From an uncultured bacterium (GTDB lineage: Bacteria; Macinerneyibacteriota; Macinerneyibacteria; Macinerneyibacteriales; CAYRFE01): DNA of 64,000 bases. The DNA lies in the NCBI GenBank assembly GCA_964423645.1, contig CAYRFE010000004.1, forward strand, positions 27,227-91,226, written 5' to 3'. The stretch's first letter is position 1. Every line of letters begins with the position of its first letter. The notes under the pieces were generated by a model that saw nothing but the letters and a program-made list of their open reading frames with translations, had not been told where the DNA came from and ran no database searches. The position numbers and the translations under genes are program-made. Shown here in pieces: positions 12,581 to 58,274 of the stretch.

Positions 12581-12682
12581 ATATTCGAGCTGATGGTAGT
12601 GATCCGATTCAAGACGATTCCATTCATAATTTGAATTCATACGATCCGTTTCATCCGCAGATTACGCTGATTTTCACAGATT
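12581..12682. repeat. 102-bp direct repeat, copy 1 (4 mismatches vs copy 2)
   Basis: Sequence atattcgagctgatggtagtgatccgattcaagacgattccattcataatttgaattcatacgatcc...cacagatt. It lies immediately 3' of the methyltransferase stop. Read on the minus strand it encodes a duplicated 28-codon N-terminal stub, MNSNYEWNRLESDHYHQLEYGITFSLHR. Confidence 0.85.
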
Positions 12683-13460
12683 ACTGTTTTTCACCGATAA
12701 AAATCATATGTTCAGAGATTTCAGCAATTGCTCGATCCGCAGATGTTTGAGTAATAATCTTTTCCCATGCATTTCGTTTTATCGGATCGTTTAAAGCATT
12801 TGTTGCTTCTTGTAATCCTGATGATAATCCTTCACAACCGGCAATGTCAATTGTTTTCAATCCGCACGATTCGACTTCGGCAATCAATCTTTCAACAGTA
12901 AAAAAATGCCACCGTTCGCCGCGCACAATATTCTCACCTTTTTGTATCAACGATATTCTTTCTTCATCGAGTAATTGGTCACTTGCCTGTTTCATAACTG
13001 TTCGTAACATTGCATAATACCCCATGACACCGAGAATAATTACTCCGTCTTTTTTGGTCACTCGGACTATTTCGGATAAGGCTTGCAACCTTTGTTGTTT
13101 GTCGGCAATGCATGATAGCGGTCCGCCAAGACACAATGTTGCGTCGAATTTATGAGATTCAAATCGCGACATATCACGGATATCACCCTGAACGGCATCA
13201 GTCAACTTATTGTGTACATCCGGTGATTCAAGCGCAAATTTTTGTTTTGCGAGAATAATGTTTTCTTTTGAAATATCCAAAAGTGTTACATCATAGCCTT
13301 TTCTGCACAAATCAAGCGAATATCTACCGGGACCTCCTCCTGCATCAAGTATCTTCCCTGTTTTCGGAAGATATTTATTCAGGTAATGCCACGTAACGAT
13401 ATATTCAAGCTGATGGTAGTAATCCGATTCAAGACGATTCCATTCATAATTTGAATTCAT
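12681..13460 (-). CDS. Class I SAM-dependent methyltransferase
   Basis: ILDAGGGPGRYSLDLCRKGYDVTLLDIS (motif I) and VIILGVMGY. Its first 60 nt and 5'UTR are duplicated just after its stop (see repeat features). Confidence 0.8.
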   Translation of the reverse strand: MNSNYEWNRLESDYYHQLEYIVTWHYLNKYLPKTGKILDAGGGPGRYSLDLCRKGYDVTLLDISKENIILAKQKFALESPDVHNKLTDAVQGDIRDMSRFESHKFDATLCLGGPLSCIADKQQRLQALSEIVRVTKKDGVIILGVMGYYAMLRTVMKQASDQLLDEERISLIQKGENIVRGERWHFFTVERLIAEVESCGLKTIDIAGCEGLSSGLQEATNALNDPIKRNAWEKIITQTSADRAIAEISEHMIFIGEKQ

Positions 13461-13502
13461 ACGATCCCTTTCATCCGCAGATTACGCTGATTTTCACAGA
13501 TT
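13401..13502. repeat. 102-bp direct repeat, copy 2
   Basis: Near-identical to 12581-12682. Covers the first 20 codons and 42 nt of 5'UTR of the methyltransferase. Confidence 0.85.
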
Positions 13503-13874
13503 TAAAACCAACCTTTTATATTCTAACGACACTCCCCCGAAATTAATAAGAAGCGCACGATTAAACCCGGACGCCTTTAGATAATTAATAACTTGCGCCT
13601 CTTCGTTACCGGAAAGCATTGCAATAGCTTTCAACTCGACTATTACAGAGGTAAAACAAATAAAATCCGCTTTATAATACGTTTTCATTGGTTTGCCACG
13701 GTAAGATAGTGATAGTTCTTTTTCTCGAACATAAGGAATACCTTGTATAATGAATTCTTCTTCCAATGCTTCCTGATACACAGCTTCAAGGAAACCATGT
13801 CCGAGTTCACGATGCACGCGCATCGCTGCACCTATAATAGCATACGTTTCTTTGTCGTTATAATCAGCGTTCAT
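13494..13874 (-). CDS. GxxExxY family protein (PD-(D/E)XK-like)
   Basis: YAIIGAAMRVHRELGHGFLEAVYQEALEEEF is the GxxExxY family signature. About 125 aa. Confidence 0.75.
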   Translation of the reverse strand: MNADYNDKETYAIIGAAMRVHRELGHGFLEAVYQEALEEEFIIQGIPYVREKELSLSYRGKPMKTYYKADFICFTSVIVELKAIAMLSGNEEAQVINYLKASGFNRALLINFGGVSLEYKRLVLNL

Positions 13875-13898: not shown

Positions 13899-14861
13899 TT
13901 ATTTCAAATGCTTCTTCGCCCATTCCGCTGTTTTCAATATGCCTTCGTCAAGGTCGATCTTCGGCTCAAACTGTAGTATTTCCCGCGCTTTTTCGATCGA
14001 CGGGATACGCAAGTCGATATCCGCTGAAAGGTCCGGTTTGAAATAGATCTTCGACTTTGAATCCAACACGCGACATATCGTCTGTGCAAGCCCGTAAATA
14101 GTGATGATCGCACGCGGATTACCGATATTGAAGGTCTCGCCTATAGCGTTCTTGTTCTCAAGACATGCCAAAAGCCCGTCTACGAAATCGTCGACAAAAC
14201 ACCATGCACGAATACGGCTTCCGTCTCCGTAAATATTGATATCTTTATTCTGTAATGCATTGTTAATAAATATCTGAATCGCGCCCTCACCTGTTTGCCC
14301 GGGGCCGTAGACATTGAACGGACGCACGCTCACGGTAGGAAGTTTGAACTCTTTGTTGTAGGCCATGGTGAGATGCTCACCCGCAAGTTTGCTCACCGCA
14401 TAGGTCCAACGTGCTTCACCGGCCGTACCGGCCACGGTGCTGTCGGTCTCGGCTGATTTATATGCCATACTTCCGAATACTTCTGATGTGGAAAAATCAA
14501 TGAATCTATCCTTAATACCATTTTCCTTAGCCGCCTCAAGCGCATGTGCAGTACCGATCATATTCACCCGCATCGTTTTGGTCGGATGCACGATAACAGT
14601 ATCAATACCCGCGATCGCCGCCGCATGGATCACGATATCGGCACCCTTCATCGCGTTTTTCAAAGACTCATACTCAAGCACATCACCTTTTACGGCAGTA
14701 AGATTTTTATGATGTGCATACTTGCTGTCACTCAACGTATCACGGTGAAAATTATCATATGCGACTATCTCATTGCCTTCGATCAACTTTTCTATCACTT
14801 TGTTTGCAATAAATCCTGCACCGCCCGTAATAAAAATGCGCTTGCCCTTTATCATATCCAA
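13899..14861 (-). CDS. NAD-dependent sugar epimerase/dehydratase (SDR)
   Basis: [10 protein letters not shown] Rossmann motif, YAVSK (YxxxK) and TSEVFG. The probable start is MIKGKRIF, 2 codons into the track ORF. Confidence 0.85.
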
Positions 14862-14866
14862 CCCCC

Positions 14867-16096
14867 TTATTTGCTTTCGCTGTCGTTATATTTATCAAAG
14901 ATCCGCACTTGTGTCTGTTCTCCGGTCGTATTATAAATAACTTTCAATTCATCGTAGGTATACGGACGTGTGAACTTAAGATAAAAACTTTTCGGCACAA
15001 GATTCATGTTCGAAAGGATCTTGAACAACCAGCGAAGTTTCTCAAACGTCTGCTTATACGTCTTGTAGTCAAGAAACGTTTTCTTCGGCGCGTTCATCGT
15101 TGCGTCAAATTCCTCGTCGATAAATCCGAGACGTTTTTTCACCTCGTCGAGAATGTCTTTATCAAACGGTTTCGGTTCTTTAATTTTCACAAGCGCTTCA
15201 TCACGCGTCATCTGACCGGAGCGAATAAGTGCAGAAAATTCGCAAAACCGCAGATCGATATTGAATTTCAACGGCAGATAATAATTGTTGGCAAAATATG
15301 CCGTGCGATTCTCCATGTGATGCCCGCCGTACCACTGCCAACCCAGCTCGGATGAAAGGAACTTCTTGACCTCTTCTTTGTTGTAATCAAGATAGTACAA
15401 CGGACGAATTTTTTTGATACCGTCGAATGTGATCCACTTCAGCCAACGCGTGATCCAGAGATTGGGAAGCGTTTTTATCGGCAGAGAGCCGAATTTTTTC
15501 TGAATACCTGCAATATACTTCGCATCCATATAAAACCAACCGACGGGAGAGATCCCTTCGGTGCGGAACGAATGCCCTTCGAAAATGTATTTGATACCGT
15601 ATTTTTTGGCGGCAAGATAATGTGTGGTGGCAAGCGCAATGTCGGCAGGCGTGTCTATTTCGGGTACGGACGCCTTCATGAAGGATTTAAAAATGTCGTT
15701 ATATTCTTTGTTGTCCACGACATGCGTGTAGAGGTCGATACCGAGTTTTTTGGTCACCGCGTAAATATTCTCCACAGCGATCTTTGAATCCCATGTATTG
15801 TCGAAATGCACGGCAAGCGGACGTAATCCCAACACTTCTTTTGCGTAATACATCAGATACGACGAATCACAGCCGCCGCTTACGCCGATCACGATATCGT
15901 ATTTTTTACGCTTGCTTTCTTTTTTGATCTTTTCGGCCAAGGCGACAAGATACTGTGTGCCTTCATCGCCGGTGGGATATTCTTTATCGAGCTGTTCGAT
16001 CTGCCGGCAGTAGTTGCAAACTCCTTCTTCGTCAAAACTGATGTTCGGGATCCGTTCGTCGTAAATACATCGGTTGCATACCTGCATGGCGGTCAT
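14867..16096 (-). CDS. N-acetyl sugar amidotransferase, WbuX-type (PP-loop ATPase)
   Basis: N-terminal Cys cluster CNRC...CNYCRQ. PP-loop SGGCDSSY. WbuX/LPS-AsnB-like family; it normally pairs with the HisH/HisF-like genes at 17272-18808. Confidence 0.75.
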
Positions 16097-16201
16097 TCCT
16101 TTCGCGGTGTGATTCTACCTTCATTATCGGTAAAACGAGTAATTCCTGAAGGTTCGTACAAGTATACAACATAAATTACGTCTCTTCACGCATTTTTTTT
16201 A

Positions 16202-16795
16202 TTAAGAAAATGGATTCTCCTCGTCGTCCTGCCACCGGGCAGGATTATTGATGATGTATTCACGAATGCGGTTGAGATCGGATTCATCGCGAATGATGTG
16301 TTCGTAATAATTGCGTTGCCATAATCGCGTATTAAATCGTTTCCATTGTAATTCATTTACACCGCGTACATATAATAACGTCGTCAACGATTTGTATTCA
16401 CCAACAATTTTGCCCAATGTTACCGTAGGGGCAATCCCTTGTGGTTGCCCATGTAATTGTGATAATTCATTTTCATTACCCTCGAGGGCGCCCACAAGAG
16501 GCGCCCCTACGGTGGATTCGATTTCATGAATATACAAAATTCCGTGGAAATGATTCGGCATGATCACGAATTCATCCAATTCAACCGATGGATAATGATC
16601 GGGGATCTCCAACCAACATCGTTCAACCATTTTCCCCGCGTCGTTCAATACCATCTCGCCGTCGATGATATCGCCGAATAGGCATTCCCGATTGTGCGCG
16701 CAAACGGTCACAAAATACACCCCTGCCGAGGAATAATCATACTCTTTCAGGCGGAGAGAATGACGGTGGAATTTATTTTTAAATAGCAAGATCAC
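16202..16795 (-). CDS. REP-associated tyrosine transposase / IS200-IS605 TnpA-like HUH (Y1) transposase
   Basis: HUH motif VIMPNHFHGILYI. Catalytic Tyr region WQRNYYEHIIRDESDLNRIREYIINNPARW. About 197 aa, as in RAYTs. Confidence 0.75.
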   Translation of the reverse strand: MILLFKNKFHRHSLRLKEYDYSSAGVYFVTVCAHNRECLFGDIIDGEMVLNDAGKMVERCWLEIPDHYPSVELDEFVIMPNHFHGILYIHEIESTVGAPLVGALEGNENELSQLHGQPQGIAPTVTLGKIVGEYKSLTTLLYVRGVNELQWKRFNTRLWQRNYYEHIIRDESDLNRIREYIINNPARWQDDEENPFS

Positions 16796-16864
16796 ATCTT
16801 TTCATCCAGAACCATAACAATTTCCCAAAATAAAAGCTTAGATTTATATTACTGAATGTTCTTG

Positions 16865-17176
16865 TTAACCTATCCAATCTTTGGAATAAACCTTTCCATT
16901 TACAAAAGTTATATAAATTATTTTTATCTTTAGACCCAATTTTGTTCCCGCACTTTTATATGTCCAATATTCAAACGTTCCAAAGCTTTTTGTCGTTGTC
17001 TCTCCAACTTCATCAGGTTTTCGACCGATTATTTCAATAACTTTTTCTTTAGTCATTCCTATATCAATCTTATCATAATTTTTTTTCGTGATTTTAAATA
17101 CTGCACCATAAATATTCAATGAATCAATTAACAATATTAATACAACCACGACTCTAATAATGTTTCTTTTTGTCAT
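16865..17176 (-). CDS. Small secreted protein (possibly BamE/SmpA-OmlA-like)
   Basis: Signal peptide, then GMTKEKVIEIIGRKPDE. Very AT-rich codon usage. Confidence 0.4.
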   Translation of the reverse strand: MTKRNIIRVVVVLILLIDSLNIYGAVFKITKKNYDKIDIGMTKEKVIEIIGRKPDEVGETTTKSFGTFEYWTYKSAGTKLGLKIKIIYITFVNGKVYSKDWIG

Positions 17177-17271
17177 AATGCTTCTCCTTGAATAATAAAA
17201 TCACAACCATTATCTGCCACCTATCCTCCCACCAATACAACATTGCCCGACCAACACAAAAAAAAACTTCC

Positions 17272-18033
17272 TCACGGCACCAATCTCTTCAATTCCTCCT
17301 GTAAGGGGAAATTGATAAGCACCGATCGGATCCGTCCCTGGTAGATGAACAAACTTCCCGCCGCCACGGCGGATGCTTTGCCTTCCTGCACGACCTTGGC
17401 GATATCAGCATATTCACCTGCGCCGCCCAGTGCGATCACGGGTATATTCACCGCATCGGTGACCATTCGCACAAGTTCGCAATCATACCCGTCCATCATG
17501 CCGTCGCGGTCGATGCTGTTGAGAAGGATCTCTCCTGCGCCGAGTTCTTCCATCTTTTTCGCATACGTAACAGGATCTTCCCCCGTATTCTTCGTGCCGT
17601 GCCGAGTGAATACTTTGTAACCGCCGAACATTGTTTTTTTCACGTCGATGGATGCGATGATGCTCTGATTACCAAAAATTCGCGCCGCTTCTGAGACAAA
17701 CGCGGGATTTTCGTATGCATAAGAATTCACCGCCACTTTCTCCACCCCCAGTTTGAATATCGTGCGTATATCGTCGATAGAACGGATCGCACCGCTGTAC
17801 GCCATCGGCATAAAACACTCGCTTGTGATCTCTTCGATAAGCGCGAAGGGCGGTTTACGCCCGTCAACAGTAGCAGTAATATCGGCGATTATGAGTTCAT
17901 CGACTTCTTTTTCGTTATAAATTTTGATGGCATTCACCGGATCACCGATATAATTGAGTTTCTTGAATTGTATGGATTTGACCAAACGACCATCCTGTAC
18001 AAGTAAACACGGCATCACACGAGTTTTCAGCAT
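17272..18033 (-). CDS. Imidazole glycerol phosphate synthase cyclase subunit-like, WbuZ-type (HisF family)
   Basis: HisF-like TIM barrel (RVMPCLLVQDGRLVK...DELIIADITAT...GGAGEYAD). Glycan-cluster context rather than a his operon. Confidence 0.85.
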   Translation of the reverse strand: MLKTRVMPCLLVQDGRLVKSIQFKKLNYIGDPVNAIKIYNEKEVDELIIADITATVDGRKPPFALIEEITSECFMPMAYSGAIRSIDDIRTIFKLGVEKVAVNSYAYENPAFVSEAARIFGNQSIIASIDVKKTMFGGYKVFTRHGTKNTGEDPVTYAKKMEELGAGEILLNSIDRDGMMDGYDCELVRMVTDAVNIPVIALGGAGEYADIAKVVQEGKASAVAAGSLFIYQGRIRSVLINFPLQEELKRLVP

Positions 18034-18060
18034 TGAGATCCCTTTAATTCATACGTATGA

Positions 18061-18150
18061 TGTGTGCCCACCCCGTACCCCTCCCGTAATGATCGGGATG
18101 GGTTTTTGTAATTATAGTGTGGGGACGTTGTCCCCACACCCCTGATAAAA
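18061..18150. repeat. REP/MITE-like element copy (partial, inverted orientation)
   Basis: tgtgcccaccccgtacccctcccgtaatgatcgggatggg ... tgtggggacgttgtccccacacccc. Palindromic G/C-run hairpins matching the 29957-30120 element. Confidence 0.6.
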
Positions 18151-18193
18151 TATTCATGACAATACATATTTTCACTATTCCATCTATTCACAA

Positions 18194-18808
18194 TTAAAGC
18201 TCCGCGAAGTTTTTAAGTAACTTCATGCCGAATTTGTGACTTTTTTCAGGATGAAACTGCGCTCCGTAGATATTACCGCGCTCTACTGCCGAAGTAAAGG
18301 CATAGCCGTATTCGGTCTTACATAATGAGTCGCTGTCATCGGTACATACCACATGAAACGAATGCACAAAATAATAACGCGGTTCATCATACATATCGGC
18401 AAACAACTTACTCTCTTTGCATATCTCCACCGTATTCCATCCCATATGCGGAATACGCAGTTTCGCATTTTCTCCGGTGAACGCAAACCGCTTTGTTTCA
18501 CCTTTGATCCACCCTAAGCCGGGAAGTGTACCTTCTTCGCTTCTTTCGGTAAGTAACTGCATCCCAAGGCAAATACCGAGTGTGGGTGTTTTTTCCGCAA
18601 GAACTTTTTCGCGTAATACGGGGATAAGCTTCATCTCATTAAGATTTTTCATGGCATTATCAAATGCTCCTACGCCGGGTAAAATCAACTTATCCGCCGT
18701 CATGATCTCGTCATGCGAAGAAGCAATTTTTACGGCAACTCCCACTTTTTTAAACATGTTTTGAATTGATTTCAAATTACCCATACCGTAATCGACAATC
18801 ACGATCAT
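18194..18808 (-). CDS. Glutamine amidotransferase subunit, WbuY-type (HisH family)
   Basis: Class I GATase: GICLGMQLL catalytic Cys, with HPE at the C-terminus. Confidence 0.85.
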   Translation of the reverse strand: MIVIVDYGMGNLKSIQNMFKKVGVAVKIASSHDEIMTADKLILPGVGAFDNAMKNLNEMKLIPVLREKVLAEKTPTLGICLGMQLLTERSEEGTLPGLGWIKGETKRFAFTGENAKLRIPHMGWNTVEICKESKLFADMYDEPRYYFVHSFHVVCTDDSDSLCKTEYGYAFTSAVERGNIYGAQFHPEKSHKFGMKLLKNFAEL

Positions 18809-19356
18809 TCTGTTTCACCGTGATCCCTATATCGTAATATTTTCGCCGGCACTCCTGCCGCTACTGCAAAAGGCGGAATATCATGCGTCACTACCGCACC
18901 TGCGCCTATAATTGCACCTTCACCGATGGTCACACCCGGCAAAATGATCGTCCCGACACCGATGTCGCTACCGTCGCCGATCACCACCGGTTTGAAGTCC
19001 AACGGATTATGCATGACGGGCTTGGTAATATCTCCCGCGTCTTCATGAACCGAAGTAAGAATTTTCACATGAGGACCGATGCCTACTCCCTTTCCGATAG
19101 TAATAGTTCCGGCGCTATGGAAAAAACATCCTTGCCCGATCCATGTATGATCACCAATATGCATTTCATTTTTGTAATATCCTTTCAGGACAGTACCATG
19201 ACCGATATAAATATTGTTCCCGAGCATAAGCGTCTCAGGGTGAAACACCAGCACTCCCGGCTCGATCACAACATTGTCACCGATTGTTTTAAACTGTTCC
19301 CGAGTAAATTCACCCGTTCCGTGAGATTGAAATTTCTTTATACTTGAAAAATCCAT
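18805..19356 (-). CDS. Sugar N/O-acetyltransferase, left-handed beta-helix (hexapeptide) family
   Basis: Repeated [LIV]G-x4 hexapeptides (IGDGSDIGVGTIILPGVTIGEGAIIGAGAVV). Confidence 0.8.
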   Translation of the reverse strand: MDFSSIKKFQSHGTGEFTREQFKTIGDNVVIEPGVLVFHPETLMLGNNIYIGHGTVLKGYYKNEMHIGDHTWIGQGCFFHSAGTITIGKGVGIGPHVKILTSVHEDAGDITKPVMHNPLDFKPVVIGDGSDIGVGTIILPGVTIGEGAIIGAGAVVTHDIPPFAVAAGVPAKILRYRDHGETE

Positions 19357-19360
19357 ACCA

Positions 19361-20461
19361 TCACCCTATCATTTTCAAAAGCGCCGCTGCAACAAAATGC
19401 GCATCGTCTTCACTGACGTGATTTCCCATCGGCAATGCAAGACCATGTTTATACGCACGGTATGCTCCGGGACAATCGCTCTCTTTATAACCGTATTTTT
19501 CTTTGTAATAGGTCAATGCATTCAGTGCATACGCACCGTAATTGGTCTCGATTCCGTTTTCTTTTAATCGTACAATCAGCGCATCGCGGTCAACCGTATC
19601 CGGCAAAACCACATGATATGTCTGATATACATGTACACGATCATTATATTCACGGGGAAGAACAATCTCTTCGTTTTGTGATAGATCTTGCGTATAGATC
19701 GATGCAATTCGCCGACGATATGCATTAAGCTCATTGGTTGCGTATAACTGCGCACAACCCAATGCCGCTTGAATATCAGTTAACCGATAATTCAATCCTG
19801 CATATACAAAATCAATTTTACCGTCATGAGCGACTATTCCATGATTACGAAGCGATCTCACTTTATCGGCACGATCATCGTCATCAGTGACCACAAACCC
19901 GCCTTCTCCGGTAGTGATCGCCTTACGCGGGTGAAGACTGTAACATCCCATATTCCCGGTCGTGCCGGTTTTTTTACCTCGATATACTGCGCCGAATGCA
20001 CATGCTGAATCATCAATGACAATAAGACCGTGACGTTTGGCGATTGCATGAATAGTATCATTATCTGCCGATTGACCGAATTCATGCACCGGTATAATAG
20101 CTTTGGTAAACGGAGTTATCTGTCCTTCGATGAGATCCTCATGCAGACAACAATCATCGACTCGAATATCAACAAGTCGCACGGTCGCACCGGTTATTTC
20201 AACCACATTTGCAGTCGCAGGAAACGTAAACGCCGGCACGATCACTTCATCGCCGGCACCGATTCCATATGTCATAAGGGCTAAATGTAATGCGGCAGTC
20301 GCAGAAGATACGGCGATCGCATGACGCGTTCCCAAATACGCGGCGGCTTCTTCTTCCAATCGTTTCGCAAACACACCCTGCACCAGATTGCCTGATTCAA
20401 GGACTGTTTTTACATCATCGAACGCTTGTTCCGGTATCCATGGTTTACTGAGTTTTATCAT
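19361..20461 (-). CDS. DegT/DnrJ/EryC1/StrS family PLP-dependent sugar aminotransferase
   Basis: MIKLSKPWIPEQAFDDVKTVLESGNLVQG; CYSLHPRKAITTGEGG region around the Lys. Confidence 0.9.
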   Translation of the reverse strand: MIKLSKPWIPEQAFDDVKTVLESGNLVQGVFAKRLEEEAAAYLGTRHAIAVSSATAALHLALMTYGIGAGDEVIVPAFTFPATANVVEITGATVRLVDIRVDDCCLHEDLIEGQITPFTKAIIPVHEFGQSADNDTIHAIAKRHGLIVIDDSACAFGAVYRGKKTGTTGNMGCYSLHPRKAITTGEGGFVVTDDDDRADKVRSLRNHGIVAHDGKIDFVYAGLNYRLTDIQAALGCAQLYATNELNAYRRRIASIYTQDLSQNEEIVLPREYNDRVHVYQTYHVVLPDTVDRDALIVRLKENGIETNYGAYALNALTYYKEKYGYKESDCPGAYRAYKHGLALPMGNHVSEDDAHFVAAALLKMIG

Positions 20462-22888: not shown

Positions 22889-22925
22889 GCTACCCCGCAG
22901 CGAACTACGGAGTATCAGCATTGTG

Positions 22926-23008
22926 CGCCCACAACCCCTCCCGTGAAAATCGGGAGGGGTTTAATTGTTATATAATGGGGGAGTTCGTCCCCATACCCCT
23001 ATTTAGAA
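22926..23008. repeat. REP/MITE-like element copy (3' half, inverted)
   Basis: cccacaacccctcccgtgaaaatcgggaggggtt...gggggagttcgtccccatacccctatttag. This is the reverse complement of 30005-30090. Confidence 0.65.
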
Positions 23009-23031
23009 AAAAAGGAGGTCATTCGACCTCC
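23006..23031 (-). terminator. Rho-independent terminator after tdh
   Basis: Hairpin ggaggtc-attc-gacctcc (23014-23031) preceded by A8 on the plus strand, which is a T-run on the minus strand. Confidence 0.55.
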
Positions 23032-29892: not shown

Positions 29893-29956
29893 ACGCGCGG
29901 ATTATACGCCGATTTGCACTGACGGTCAAATGTAATCGGAAAAATAAGTAAAAATC

Positions 29957-30120
29957 GAGACCTTTGCGAAATTCGAAATTTTTTTATTTTTCTGTTTTTC
30001 CTAAATAGGGGTGTGGGGACGAAGTCACCACCATATAACAAGTTAAGCCCCTCACGATTTTTCACGGGAGGGGTTTGGGGTGGGCACAACTTGTAAAAAT
30101 TGTACTTTCGCAAAGCTCTC
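29957..30120. mobile_element. Full-length MITE/REP-like element with terminal inverted repeats
   Basis: Left TIR gagacctttgcgaaattcgaaa, right TIR tgtactttcgcaaagctctc. Internal palindromes ggggtgtggggacgaagtcaccacc and cccctcacgatttttcacgggagggg, followed by G4-like gggaggggtttggggtggg. Homologous copies at 18061, 22926, 33892, 39294, 53501 and 57958. Confidence 0.65.
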
Positions 30121-33790: not shown

Positions 33791-33891
33791 ACAAATCCTC
33801 CTATAGAATCATGATTTTTGAATCCCCCACATCGTAGTATAAACACTTTGATTTTTTTTTCAAGAATAATTTTCGAAACGCAAACATTATA

Positions 33892-34105
33892 GAAACCTTT
33901 GCGAAAATCAAAATATCTTAATGACGATCATTTCCCAAATACGGACGTGAGGATACAGTCATCATTTAGACCTTTGCAAAATTCAAAATTTCCTAAGTAT
34001 CTTTACTTTCTATAAAGGGGGTACACAAATTCAAAATTTGGTAGTTTTGCAAAGGTCTTCAACAGGCGATCAAAATATGCGAGAACTTTGTCCCCGCACC
34101 CCTTT
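33892..34105. repeat. Compound REP/MITE-like element (two left ends, one right end, G-rich tail)
   Basis: aaacctttgcgaaaatcaaaat; tagacctttgcaaaattcaaaattt; inverted aaattcaaaatttggtagttttgcaaaggtc; ctttgtccccgcacccc. Confidence 0.6.
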
Positions 34106-39293: not shown

Positions 39294-39356
39294 TCATCAC
39301 CACACCCCCTTTTAGAAAATAAAGATATTTTGGAAATTTTGAATTTTCAAAGGTCT
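39294..39356. repeat. REP/MITE-like element, left-end fragment (inverted)
   Basis: caccacaccccctttagaaaataaagatattttggaaattttgaattttcaaaggtctc is the reverse complement of the left end of the 29957 element. Confidence 0.55.
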
Positions 39357-53429: not shown

Positions 53430-53500
53430 TTTGAGGTGTACTATACGAAAAAATCGCAAATTGTCAAGTAAAATGTCGAATATGCGCGAATTTATTTATC

Positions 53501-53590
53501 GAGATCTTTGCGAAATTCAAAATTACTAAATATTCTTTATTCTCTAAAAAAGAGGAGTCGGGACACAAATATTGTAGTATTTTTTTGAGA
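53501..53590. repeat. REP/MITE-like element copy (left portion)
   Basis: gagatctttgcgaaattcaaaatt...taaaaaagaggagtcgggacacaaatattgtag, homologous to 29957-30045. Confidence 0.6.
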
Positions 53591-57674: not shown

Positions 57675-57957
57675 ATTTACCCCCAAATTCTTATCTACGT
57701 CATTCTTCATGAAGTATACGTGTATTTGCATGCTTTTGCAAGTGTGCCTTTGTTGTATTGAACAATTTATCCGCAATGTTGTGTAAAAGAATCATTTTGC
57801 CACCCCATCATCACGGACCAAACCGACAACGAATATGTGATGACTTCCGTTTTTTTATGAAAACAGATTTTTTATCAATCCCGCAACGTTTTTCGCATCG
57901 CACAACTGCTGCATACGTCGAGTGTGAATTATATATCGCATTGTTTTATGACGTATC

Positions 57958-58065
57958 GAGCCCTTTGCGAAATTCGAATTTTTTCATTTTCTATTTTTCA
58001 TAAAGAGGAGTGTGGGGATGAAATCCACACTATATAACAATTGTTTGCTATCCCCTCTCCCCGCA
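57958..58065. repeat. REP/MITE-like element copy
   Basis: gagccctttgcgaaattcgaattttttcattttctatttttcataaagaggagtgtggggatgaaatccacactatataacaattg...cccctctccccgcac. Confidence 0.6.
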
Positions 58066-58274
58066 CTTATTTTCATGGGAGAAAGAAAATGCGGAAAAAT
58101 CAAACTTTATAAAGACCTGAAAGTTGTGAAACAATTCGTGCACCTTTTTATCATGATTCACCCAATTGCATCTTCAAGATTTTATTCACACACATTTCAT
58201 CGCGTCATATACATATTTCACATCAATTGCATTGACAACCACACTTAAAATCAGTAAACTGACCATACAAAATC

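Follow-up and report, generated by a model that had tools for sequence, protein, structure and literature searches.

Gene content and base composition of the locus

We analysed a stretch of 64,000 nucleotides (nt) from an uncultured bacterium (contig CAYRFE010000004.1; hereafter 'the window', to which all positions refer), in which the acetamidino-sugar genes wbuZ and wbuX are separated by a small AT-rich gene and by a gene for a REP-associated tyrosine transposase (RAYT, or TnpA_REP; REP stands for repetitive extragenic palindrome). Comparison with related contigs reveals an architecture in which an old, resident RAYT gene is accompanied, immediately upstream, by a slot for AT-rich cassettes whose content varies between lineages. 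ENA and Logan assemblies of this organism, made separately, reproduce the arrangement of the window, and an exact-protein look-up matched that organism alone. The arrangement comprises the following features.

18194..18808, minus strand: wbuY, hisH-like glutamine amidotransferase subunit (Pfam GATase; TIGR01855, 254.6 bits)
18034..18193: wbuY-wbuZ spacer of 160 nt with a ~85-nt double-hairpin repeat (18063-18143)
17272..18033, minus strand: wbuZ, hisF-like acetamidino-modification cyclase subunit (NF038364, TIGR03572)
16772..17267, minus strand: variable AT-rich cassette slot, from ~5-8 nt past the wbuZ stop codon to about RAYT codon 8
16865..17176, minus strand: cargo gene of the window lineage, 103 amino acids (aa), with a predicted N-terminal membrane helix and a BLIP/BamE-like (DUF3862) domain
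16202..16795, minus strand: RAYT/TnpA_REP-like Y1 HUH gene, 197 aa, with HUH motif H82-F-H84 and putative catalytic Y180
16422..16513, minus strand: in-frame 'double-foot' REP hairpin within the RAYT gene, GTAGGGGC...GCCCCTAC
16097..16201, minus strand: RAYT 3' flank up to the wbuX start, through which BLAST alignments to relatives are unbroken
14867..16096, minus strand: wbuX, PP-loop N-acetyl sugar amidotransferase (TIGR03573)

The calls for wbuY, wbuZ, wbuX, the small gene and the RAYT gene that were made in a preliminary description of the window are correct, as family models match them. For WbuZ the NCBIfam models NF038364 (AglZ/HisF2) and TIGR03572 score 357.6 bits (cut-off 310) and 305.5 bits (cut-off 299.7), and for WbuX TIGR03573 scores 247 bits (cut-off 203.2). 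All three family models of the WbuX/WbuY/WbuZ unit are passed, while the adjacency of the genes is only loose, the unit being interrupted.

The same description had pointed to an AT-rich segment at 16800-17270 and had named the whole an 'AT-rich RAYT island'. The segment itself is confirmed: its GC content is 0.297 compared with a mean of 0.416 for the window (standard deviation 0.037 for segments of the same size; z = -3.2), which places it among the lowest 0.2% of such segments. The low GC is, however, confined to the 103-aa gene (GC 0.276; GC at third codon positions, GC3, 0.21) and its flanks, while the composition of the RAYT gene is host-like (GC 0.441, GC3 0.475; GC3 of its neighbours 0.37-0.56). 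The name thus merges two unlike compositions, and the logic of the annotation has to be corrected in that low GC marks the cargo and not the transposase.

A constant RAYT gene and a variable slot

Six related contig sets were recovered, whose flanking proteins are 80-98% identical to those of the window and whose other genes are collinear with it. The RAYT gene is located at the wbuZ/wbuX junction in every related contig (L114, L032, L118, L033, L115, L119 and the composite L004+L026/L116). The slot upstream of it (~0.5 kb) contains, across five lineages, four unrelated cargo genes or nothing, with a GC of 0.28-0.31 for the cargos versus 0.40-0.50 for the flanks. Apart from the 103-aa gene of the window, the following occupants were found.

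Sister metagenome-assembled genome (MAG; contigs L004+L026, GCA_964539615): slot empty, wbuZ followed by the RAYT gene after 58 nt; wbuY and wbuZ overlap
L114, the closest relative (Logan SRR9164852): gene for a 162-aa protein with no assigned family, GC 0.284, its stop codon overlapping the RAYT ATG
L032 and L118 (Logan SRR29340344 and SRR28465793): gene for a 376-aa WG_beta_rep lipoprotein, GC 0.31
L033 (Logan SRR13051710): gene for a 198-aa HEPN_AbiU2 protein, GC 0.31

Contigs L032 and L114 cover the whole region, an exact overlap of 55 nt connects L004 with L026, and the junction from the end of wbuZ to the RAYT gene is confirmed by contig L116 of the Joint Genome Institute (JGI); L115 and L119 start inside the 3' end of the RAYT gene and continue into wbuX. 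Homology between the window and its relatives ends at 17264-17271 and restarts at 16747-16784, and in BLAST comparisons the sister composite, L032, L114 and L033 align continuously through the RAYT 3' flank (79-87% identity overall). The non-coding 3' flanks of the cassettes measure -4, 3, 23 and 69 nt. It had been considered unusual that a RAYT should appear as a cargo gene; the comparison reverses these roles, the RAYT being the constant element and the upstream AT-rich gene the variable cargo. In our reading the RAYT gene is a constant anchor and the small gene beside it the cargo.

The borders of this islet are also where seven contigs of different assemblies terminate: L026, L116, L117, L033 and L118 start 42-85 nt before the wbuZ stop codon, and L115 and L119 start 72-84 nt before that of the RAYT gene. 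Contig ends of this kind would be expected where several coexisting variants in a sample disrupt the assembly graph; both the window-type and the sister-type locus are present in ENA sample ERZ27262927.

The closest named relatives of WbuX are from Zixibacteria (73-75% identity). In the four Zixibacteria loci (L027, L028, L029, L031) the order acetyltransferase-hisH-hisF-wbuX is tightly packed, with hisF and wbuX 8-14 nt apart or overlapping, and in none of the four is a RAYT gene or a small gene found between them. In eight of ~20 more distant genomes wbuX is the gene after wbuZ, at a distance of ~25-95 nt, and in five it precedes wbuY; a few loci are split or inverted, and a RAYT gene between wbu genes was seen in none. 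The statement that the three genes are normally contiguous is thus largely borne out, by the four outgroup loci and eight of the ~20 distant genomes, with the few split or inverted loci as exceptions. Since the outgroups are contiguous and devoid of both genes, the contiguous state is ancestral and the window carries additions. The synteny comparison that had been proposed as a check likewise finds no relatives with the same two genes and a similar GC. Of the 'recent insertion' that had been proposed for the whole segment, one part stands, in that both genes are additions missing from the outgroups; the other part does not, as the RAYT gene is resident in all relatives, diverged and host-like. 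Only the AT-rich slot, and not the RAYT gene, looks like a recent insertion.

The RAYT protein: family, catalytic residues and selection

The RAYT protein is recognized by the Pfam model Y1_Tnp (29.8, cut-off 23); its NCBIfam REP_Tyr_transpos score of 66.4 is below the cut-off of 80, and that match falls into two pieces split by a middle insert. Both histidines of the HUH motif are invariant in an alignment of 22 sequences, and Y180, kept in at least 90% of the aligned sequences, corresponds in position to the catalytic tyrosine (Y115) of E. coli TnpA_REP; the structure of the latter (4ER8) is the closest solved one and is matched over the C-terminal helix region only (E = 0.045). More than 8000 homologues occur across many phyla; outside the locus, the best of them among 5.8 billion proteins is at most 61% identical, and a metagenome scan with the RAYT returned distant relatives only (≤55% identity) and no further alleles of the locus. 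The window contains no second RAYT copy, and PADLOC and PHROGs gave no useful match for either the cargos or the RAYT. Two candidate descriptions were rejected: an IS200/IS605 insertion sequence, because there is one copy in the window, the nearest protein is ≤61% identical and the flanks have no terminal hairpins; and an AT-rich upstream cargo as a general trait of the family, which is seen in 0 of 30 RAYT loci.

The N- and C-terminal cores of the RAYT, when compared with those of the relatives, exhibit ratios of nonsynonymous to synonymous divergence (dN/dS) of 0.05-0.2, that is, purifying selection, and a synonymous divergence (dS) of ~0.5-2 that is comparable to the 0.9-2 of the flanking genes. 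The low dN/dS together with the flank-like synonymous divergence shows that the RAYT gene is neither recent nor decaying in the window. The HUH motif and the tyrosine are intact in four of the five lineages (L118 lies outside that residue check). In the sister MAG (L026, 71-681, same as L116 and L117) the gene is frameshifted (-1) at a stretch of five A residues close to codon 17 and encodes a cysteine in place of Y180, and this is also the sole lineage with an empty slot.

Elsewhere in the family, three genes appear to be co-directional members of type I restriction-modification operons (L045, 3114-3713; L069, 4959-5570; L074, 4932-5636). In L045 and L069 the RAYT gene has a putative hsdS gene on one side and a putative hsdR gene on the other and overlaps the stop codon of the former and the start codon of the latter; in L074 it is located between putative hsdM and hsdR genes, all hsd identities being read from N-terminal sequences only.

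The in-frame REP

The middle of the RAYT gene (~16322-16533) is hypervariable and unalignable between relatives. At 16422-16513 it consists of an in-frame palindrome (inverted repeats I17/I18) with a calculated DNA fold of -25.2 kcal/mol, and relatives carry other in-frame REP variants, e.g., the perfect 12-bp hairpin GTAGGGGTTCAAGATTTTGAACCCCTAC, which is read as VGVQDFEPL. In a set of 80 metagenome loci, 55 of the 59 VGA motifs use the codons GTA-GGG-GCN, and the REP 8-mer is observed 238 times versus 12 expected, often paired around the gene. Within the 64 kb of the window, no extragenic copy of the GTAGGGGC/GCCCCTAC REP was found, the only one being that inside the RAYT gene. A REP placed within the tnpA_REP gene, in frame and between HuH and Y, is what has been described for subclass 2.4 in a study of TnpA_REP/RAYT subclasses (Quentin et al. 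2018; BMC Genomics 19:475; PMC6006769). The RAYT of the window is a member of this published subclass, and the in-frame hairpin was discarded as a new feature because it is already described there.

In distant members of the family (L051/L053, L083, L035 and L088/L102/L109) the in-frame REP region has grown into tandem peptide repeats, e.g., GRPDAG in five to six copies, NHSPKQ in four or SEVAGEALANQDFSQ in three to four, with copy numbers that vary between near-identical contigs.

The cargo protein of the window and its expression

The 103-aa protein matches Pfam DUF3862 just above the cut-off (25.5 versus 25 bits; E = 1.4e-5) and BamE with E = 1.6e-4. Its AlphaFold model (predicted local distance difference test, pLDDT, 86.9) comprises a membrane helix (H4-23) followed by an alpha-alpha-beta4 domain, for which Foldseek returned 3D4E, BamE and BLIP as best matches. 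No close homologue was found among 5.8 billion proteins; an exhaustive HMMER search yielded ~80 distant homologues (best 54% identity), in whose alignment a signal or anchor sequence precedes a common KENYDKI-GMT...NGKV domain. The gene product is a real small envelope protein, with a predicted membrane anchor and BLIP/BamE-type fold. No phage matches were found for two of the cargos.

A consensus scan of the coding strand found no terminator-like site between wbuZ and wbuX. In the relatives, the cargo is located within -4 to 27 nt of its neighbours and abuts or overlaps the RAYT start codon. Read-through from wbuZ to wbuX is plausible because the genes are co-oriented, no terminator-like site separates them and the cargo abuts or overlaps the RAYT start. 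The possible polar effect raised in the preliminary description is thus not supported. Judging from this gene layout, the cargo is probably co-transcribed with the operon.

Exchange between strains

The islet is a mosaic. Contigs L118 and L032 are 98-100% identical across the end of wbuZ, the whole cargo gene and most of wbuX, but only 17-80% identical over ~730 nt that extend from about RAYT codon 17 to ~100 nt into wbuX, their RAYT N-terminal cores being 63% identical. The breakpoints of this divergent patch fall in conserved sequence, as expected from homologous recombination. The RAYT middle regions are of three types, namely one found in the window only, a second in L114, L033 and L118, and a third in L032 and the sister MAG, and these types reassort relative to the cargo types; RAYT alleles are altogether more diverse than the flanks. 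From the patch and the reassortment of middles and cargos we infer homologous exchange across the islet. A search for direct repeats, target-site duplications, inverted repeats and hairpins around the ends of the AT-rich segment and those of the RAYT gene gave chance-level short matches only.

Origin of the arrangement

The explanation which we favour, with a probability of roughly 0.55, is that insertion of the RAYT created a permissive gap, into which cargos came by rare illegitimate events and in which they are reshuffled by homologous recombination. A RAYT of subclass 2.4 would have entered the hisF/wbuX junction in an ancestor of the clade and would have been retained there since as an intact gene under purifying selection. 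Its insertion would have broken the tight coupling of hisF and wbuX, leaving a permissive gap in a transcribed operon, and foreign AT-rich genes may then have landed in this gap through rare illegitimate events. Cassettes and RAYT alleles would now be reshuffled between strains by homologous recombination, for which the 3' end of wbuZ, the conserved RAYT codons ~9-20 and wbuX could serve as anchors. This order of events and the mechanism of exchange are reconstructed from the comparisons above, and homologous recombination at a permissive site is the favoured route.

Several points weigh against this explanation. No cargo was found in the 105-nt gap between the RAYT gene and wbuX, which should be equally permissive. 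No donor sequences for the cargos were found either, the best homologue of the window cargo being 54% identical, so that the first arrival of the cargos is unexplained; furthermore, the cargos have very short non-coding flanks (-4 to 95 nt). The age estimate for the RAYT is a rough one, given that synonymous sites approach saturation and that strict orthology does not hold for the RAYT alleles. Finally, five lineages were sampled, all as metagenome contigs of which some are very short (L033 measures 1.5 kb), and their taxonomy is drawn only from the best WbuX matches and the shared gene order.

That the RAYT itself captures the cassettes appears unlikely. Its Y1 HUH enzyme would cut and rejoin single-stranded DNA near its own 5' end and thereby insert or swap cassettes, in analogy to an integron platform. 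Such an activity would fit the observations that variable content is invariably found next to the RAYT start and at no other junction of the cluster, that the gene is under purifying selection with the HUH motif and tyrosine intact in four of the five lineages, and that the sole lineage with an empty slot has the frameshifted gene with Tyr replaced by Cys; in E. coli, moreover, the tnpA_REP locus is replaced by a toxin-antitoxin operon in some strains (PMC6006769). However, neither a GTAG-footed hairpin nor any other shared motif is found at the cassette borders, the right-hand breakpoint lies inside the RAYT coding sequence, and the patch that distinguishes L118 from L032 looks like ordinary homologous recombination. 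Nor does any of the 30 family RAYT loci have an AT-rich upstream segment, or the window an extragenic copy of the cognate REP. We consider it rather improbable that a domesticated RAYT anchors a single-gene exchange site and promotes the capture or swapping of low-GC envelope and defence genes immediately 5' of its own gene; in that case the Y1 HUH enzyme would perhaps act through REP-like structures in single-stranded DNA.

Independent insertions, by which different units of a passenger and a Y1 transposase (IS200/IS605-type) repeatedly hit the same wbuZ-wbuX target, would account for RAYT alleles that are far more divergent than their flanks (63% for the N-terminal core versus 98-100% for the flanks) and for the fact that the first 8-16 codons of the RAYT gene go together with the cargo, being identical in L118 and L032 and different elsewhere. 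Such a history is improbable, though: alignments of the window with four relatives continue from the RAYT C-terminal core across the 3' flank and into wbuX without interruption, L118 and L032 have the same cargo yet differ in the remainder of the RAYT gene, and neither subterminal hairpin ends, nor a second copy in the window, nor a near-identical RAYT elsewhere among 5.8 billion proteins was seen.

The single recent AT-rich island of the preliminary description, which would have brought in the small gene together with the RAYT as cargo, agrees with the lack of both genes in the outgroups and with the strongly AT-rich small gene. It is practically ruled out because the RAYT gene is present in every relative, has a host-like composition and has cores whose synonymous divergence is on a par with that of the flanking genes; the sister contigs contradict it directly, with a RAYT gene lacking the small gene, and other relatives combine the RAYT with other cargos. 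A chimeric metagenome contig is scarcely credible at all, for although a number of related contigs terminate at the slot or close to it, the ENA and Logan assemblies, made separately, show the same arrangement, both the exact 55-nt overlap and an independent JGI contig connect the two sides of the sister junction, and L032 and L114 span the whole region.

Neighbouring genes and other repeats

The islet and the wbu genes are flanked by further genes of the cluster.

19361-20461, minus strand: DegT-family aminotransferase
18805-19356, minus strand: hexapeptide acetyltransferase
13899-14861, minus strand: SDR epimerase/dehydratase
13494-13874, minus strand: GxxExxY/PD-(D/E)XK protein
12681-13460, minus strand: methyltransferase

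The methyltransferase gene is bracketed by a 102-nt direct repeat (12581-12682 and 13401-13502, 97% identical), and its first 23 codons are duplicated downstream. A tblastn search with the GxxExxY and methyltransferase proteins found no match on the sister-type contigs L115 and L116, and in L116 a PAS_3 gene follows the epimerase gene after a 376-nt gap. The GxxExxY/methyltransferase region looks like a second variable slot.

The spacer between wbuY and wbuZ contains one copy (18063-18143) of a ~85-nt repeat with two G+C-rich hairpins, CCCCTCCCG...CGGGAGGGG and GTGTGGGGAC...GTCCCCACAC, of which further intergenic copies are found at 22925-23012, at 30007-30088 (inverted) and, in part, near 58008-58075. 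The sister MAG and L032 lack this spacer, their wbuY and wbuZ genes being directly adjacent or overlapping, and the spacer of L114 has a different inner sequence that includes GTAGGGGC; the spacer is a lineage-specific addition. The ~85-nt repeats were considered, and rejected, as REPs of the RAYT, being devoid of the GTAG foot and not flanking the gene. A second intergenic motif, ATCGAGACCTTTGCGAAATTCGAAATTT followed by an AT-rich run, occurs at 29954-29987, 33889-33922, 33964-33997, 53498-53531 and 57955-57988 and, inverted, at 39305-39347; it is sometimes joined to the hairpin repeat, has no Rfam match and may represent a promoter-type element of the window lineage. Rfam, when run over the window, identified a tRNA only.

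In the four Zixibacteria loci (positions 1-2400 of the respective contigs) the acetyltransferase-hisH-hisF-wbuX block is located directly downstream of fliD/fliS/flgN/flgM and an HDOD gene. Because this block adjoins flagellar genes, the acetamidino sugar may be attached to flagellin and not to O-antigen. Among the genes called within ~10 kb on each side of the cassette in the window, none is flagellar.

Comparison with known systems

When compared with wbuY-wbuZ-wbuX or hisH2-hisF2-wbpG units, as represented by TIGR03572, TIGR03573 and NF038364, the unit in the window maintains the order hisH-hisF-wbuX but is split by ~1.2 kb of unrelated genes and by the 160-nt repeat-bearing spacer.

With subclass 2.4 the RAYT shares the HUH motif, the C-terminal tyrosine, the GTAG foot, three G-C pairs at the base of the stem, the in-frame double-foot REP and the single copy, as well as membership in a family that is widespread across phyla. 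It departs from the hallmark of the subclass, i.e., REPs that flank the gene and are scattered over the genome, by the lack of an extragenic copy in 64 kb; its co-directional position inside a biosynthetic operon, beside a variable cassette slot, is likewise undescribed in PMC6006769. In E. coli, the REPtron is a tnpA_REP gene flanked by REPs (Ton-Hoang et al. 2012, as cited in PMC6006769). The RAYT of the window resembles it as a single-copy, domesticated Y1 enzyme, and the E. coli locus, too, is known to hold other genes in its place in some strains. Sequence similarity to the E. coli protein is very low, however, the latter lacks an in-frame REP, and the E. coli locus lies in an intergenic region and not within an operon.

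The interest of the locus lies in a RAYT gene that has no REPs nearby, is under purifying selection and is placed in a surface-glycan operon beside the only hotspot of gene content in that operon. To our knowledge, the host roles of RAYTs beyond the spreading of REP doublets forming hairpins (REPINs) are an open question. If the link between the RAYT and the slot is causal, the locus would offer a tractable natural system for a host-level role of a Y1 HUH enzyme in gene capture; if it is not, it would be a clean case of a selfish-gene insertion that opened a permissive site and thus gave rise to a strain-variable micro-island in a glycosylation locus.

A further comparison is with integron cassette arrays and with the small flexible islets of glycan or defence loci. 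The enzyme next to the slot is a Y1 HUH protein and not a tyrosine recombinase, IntI is not among the adjacent genes (wbuZ and RAYT, the only neighbours considered), and cassette flanks of only -4 to 95 nt leave no room for attC-like sites. What the locus has in common with these systems is the swapping of promoterless, co-oriented, low-GC single genes at one fixed site beside a recombinase-like gene, with cargos that include an Abi-type HEPN_AbiU2 protein and envelope proteins. An exchange site anchored by the RAYT would, if real, represent an integron-like function for this family, exerted inside an expressed glycan operon.

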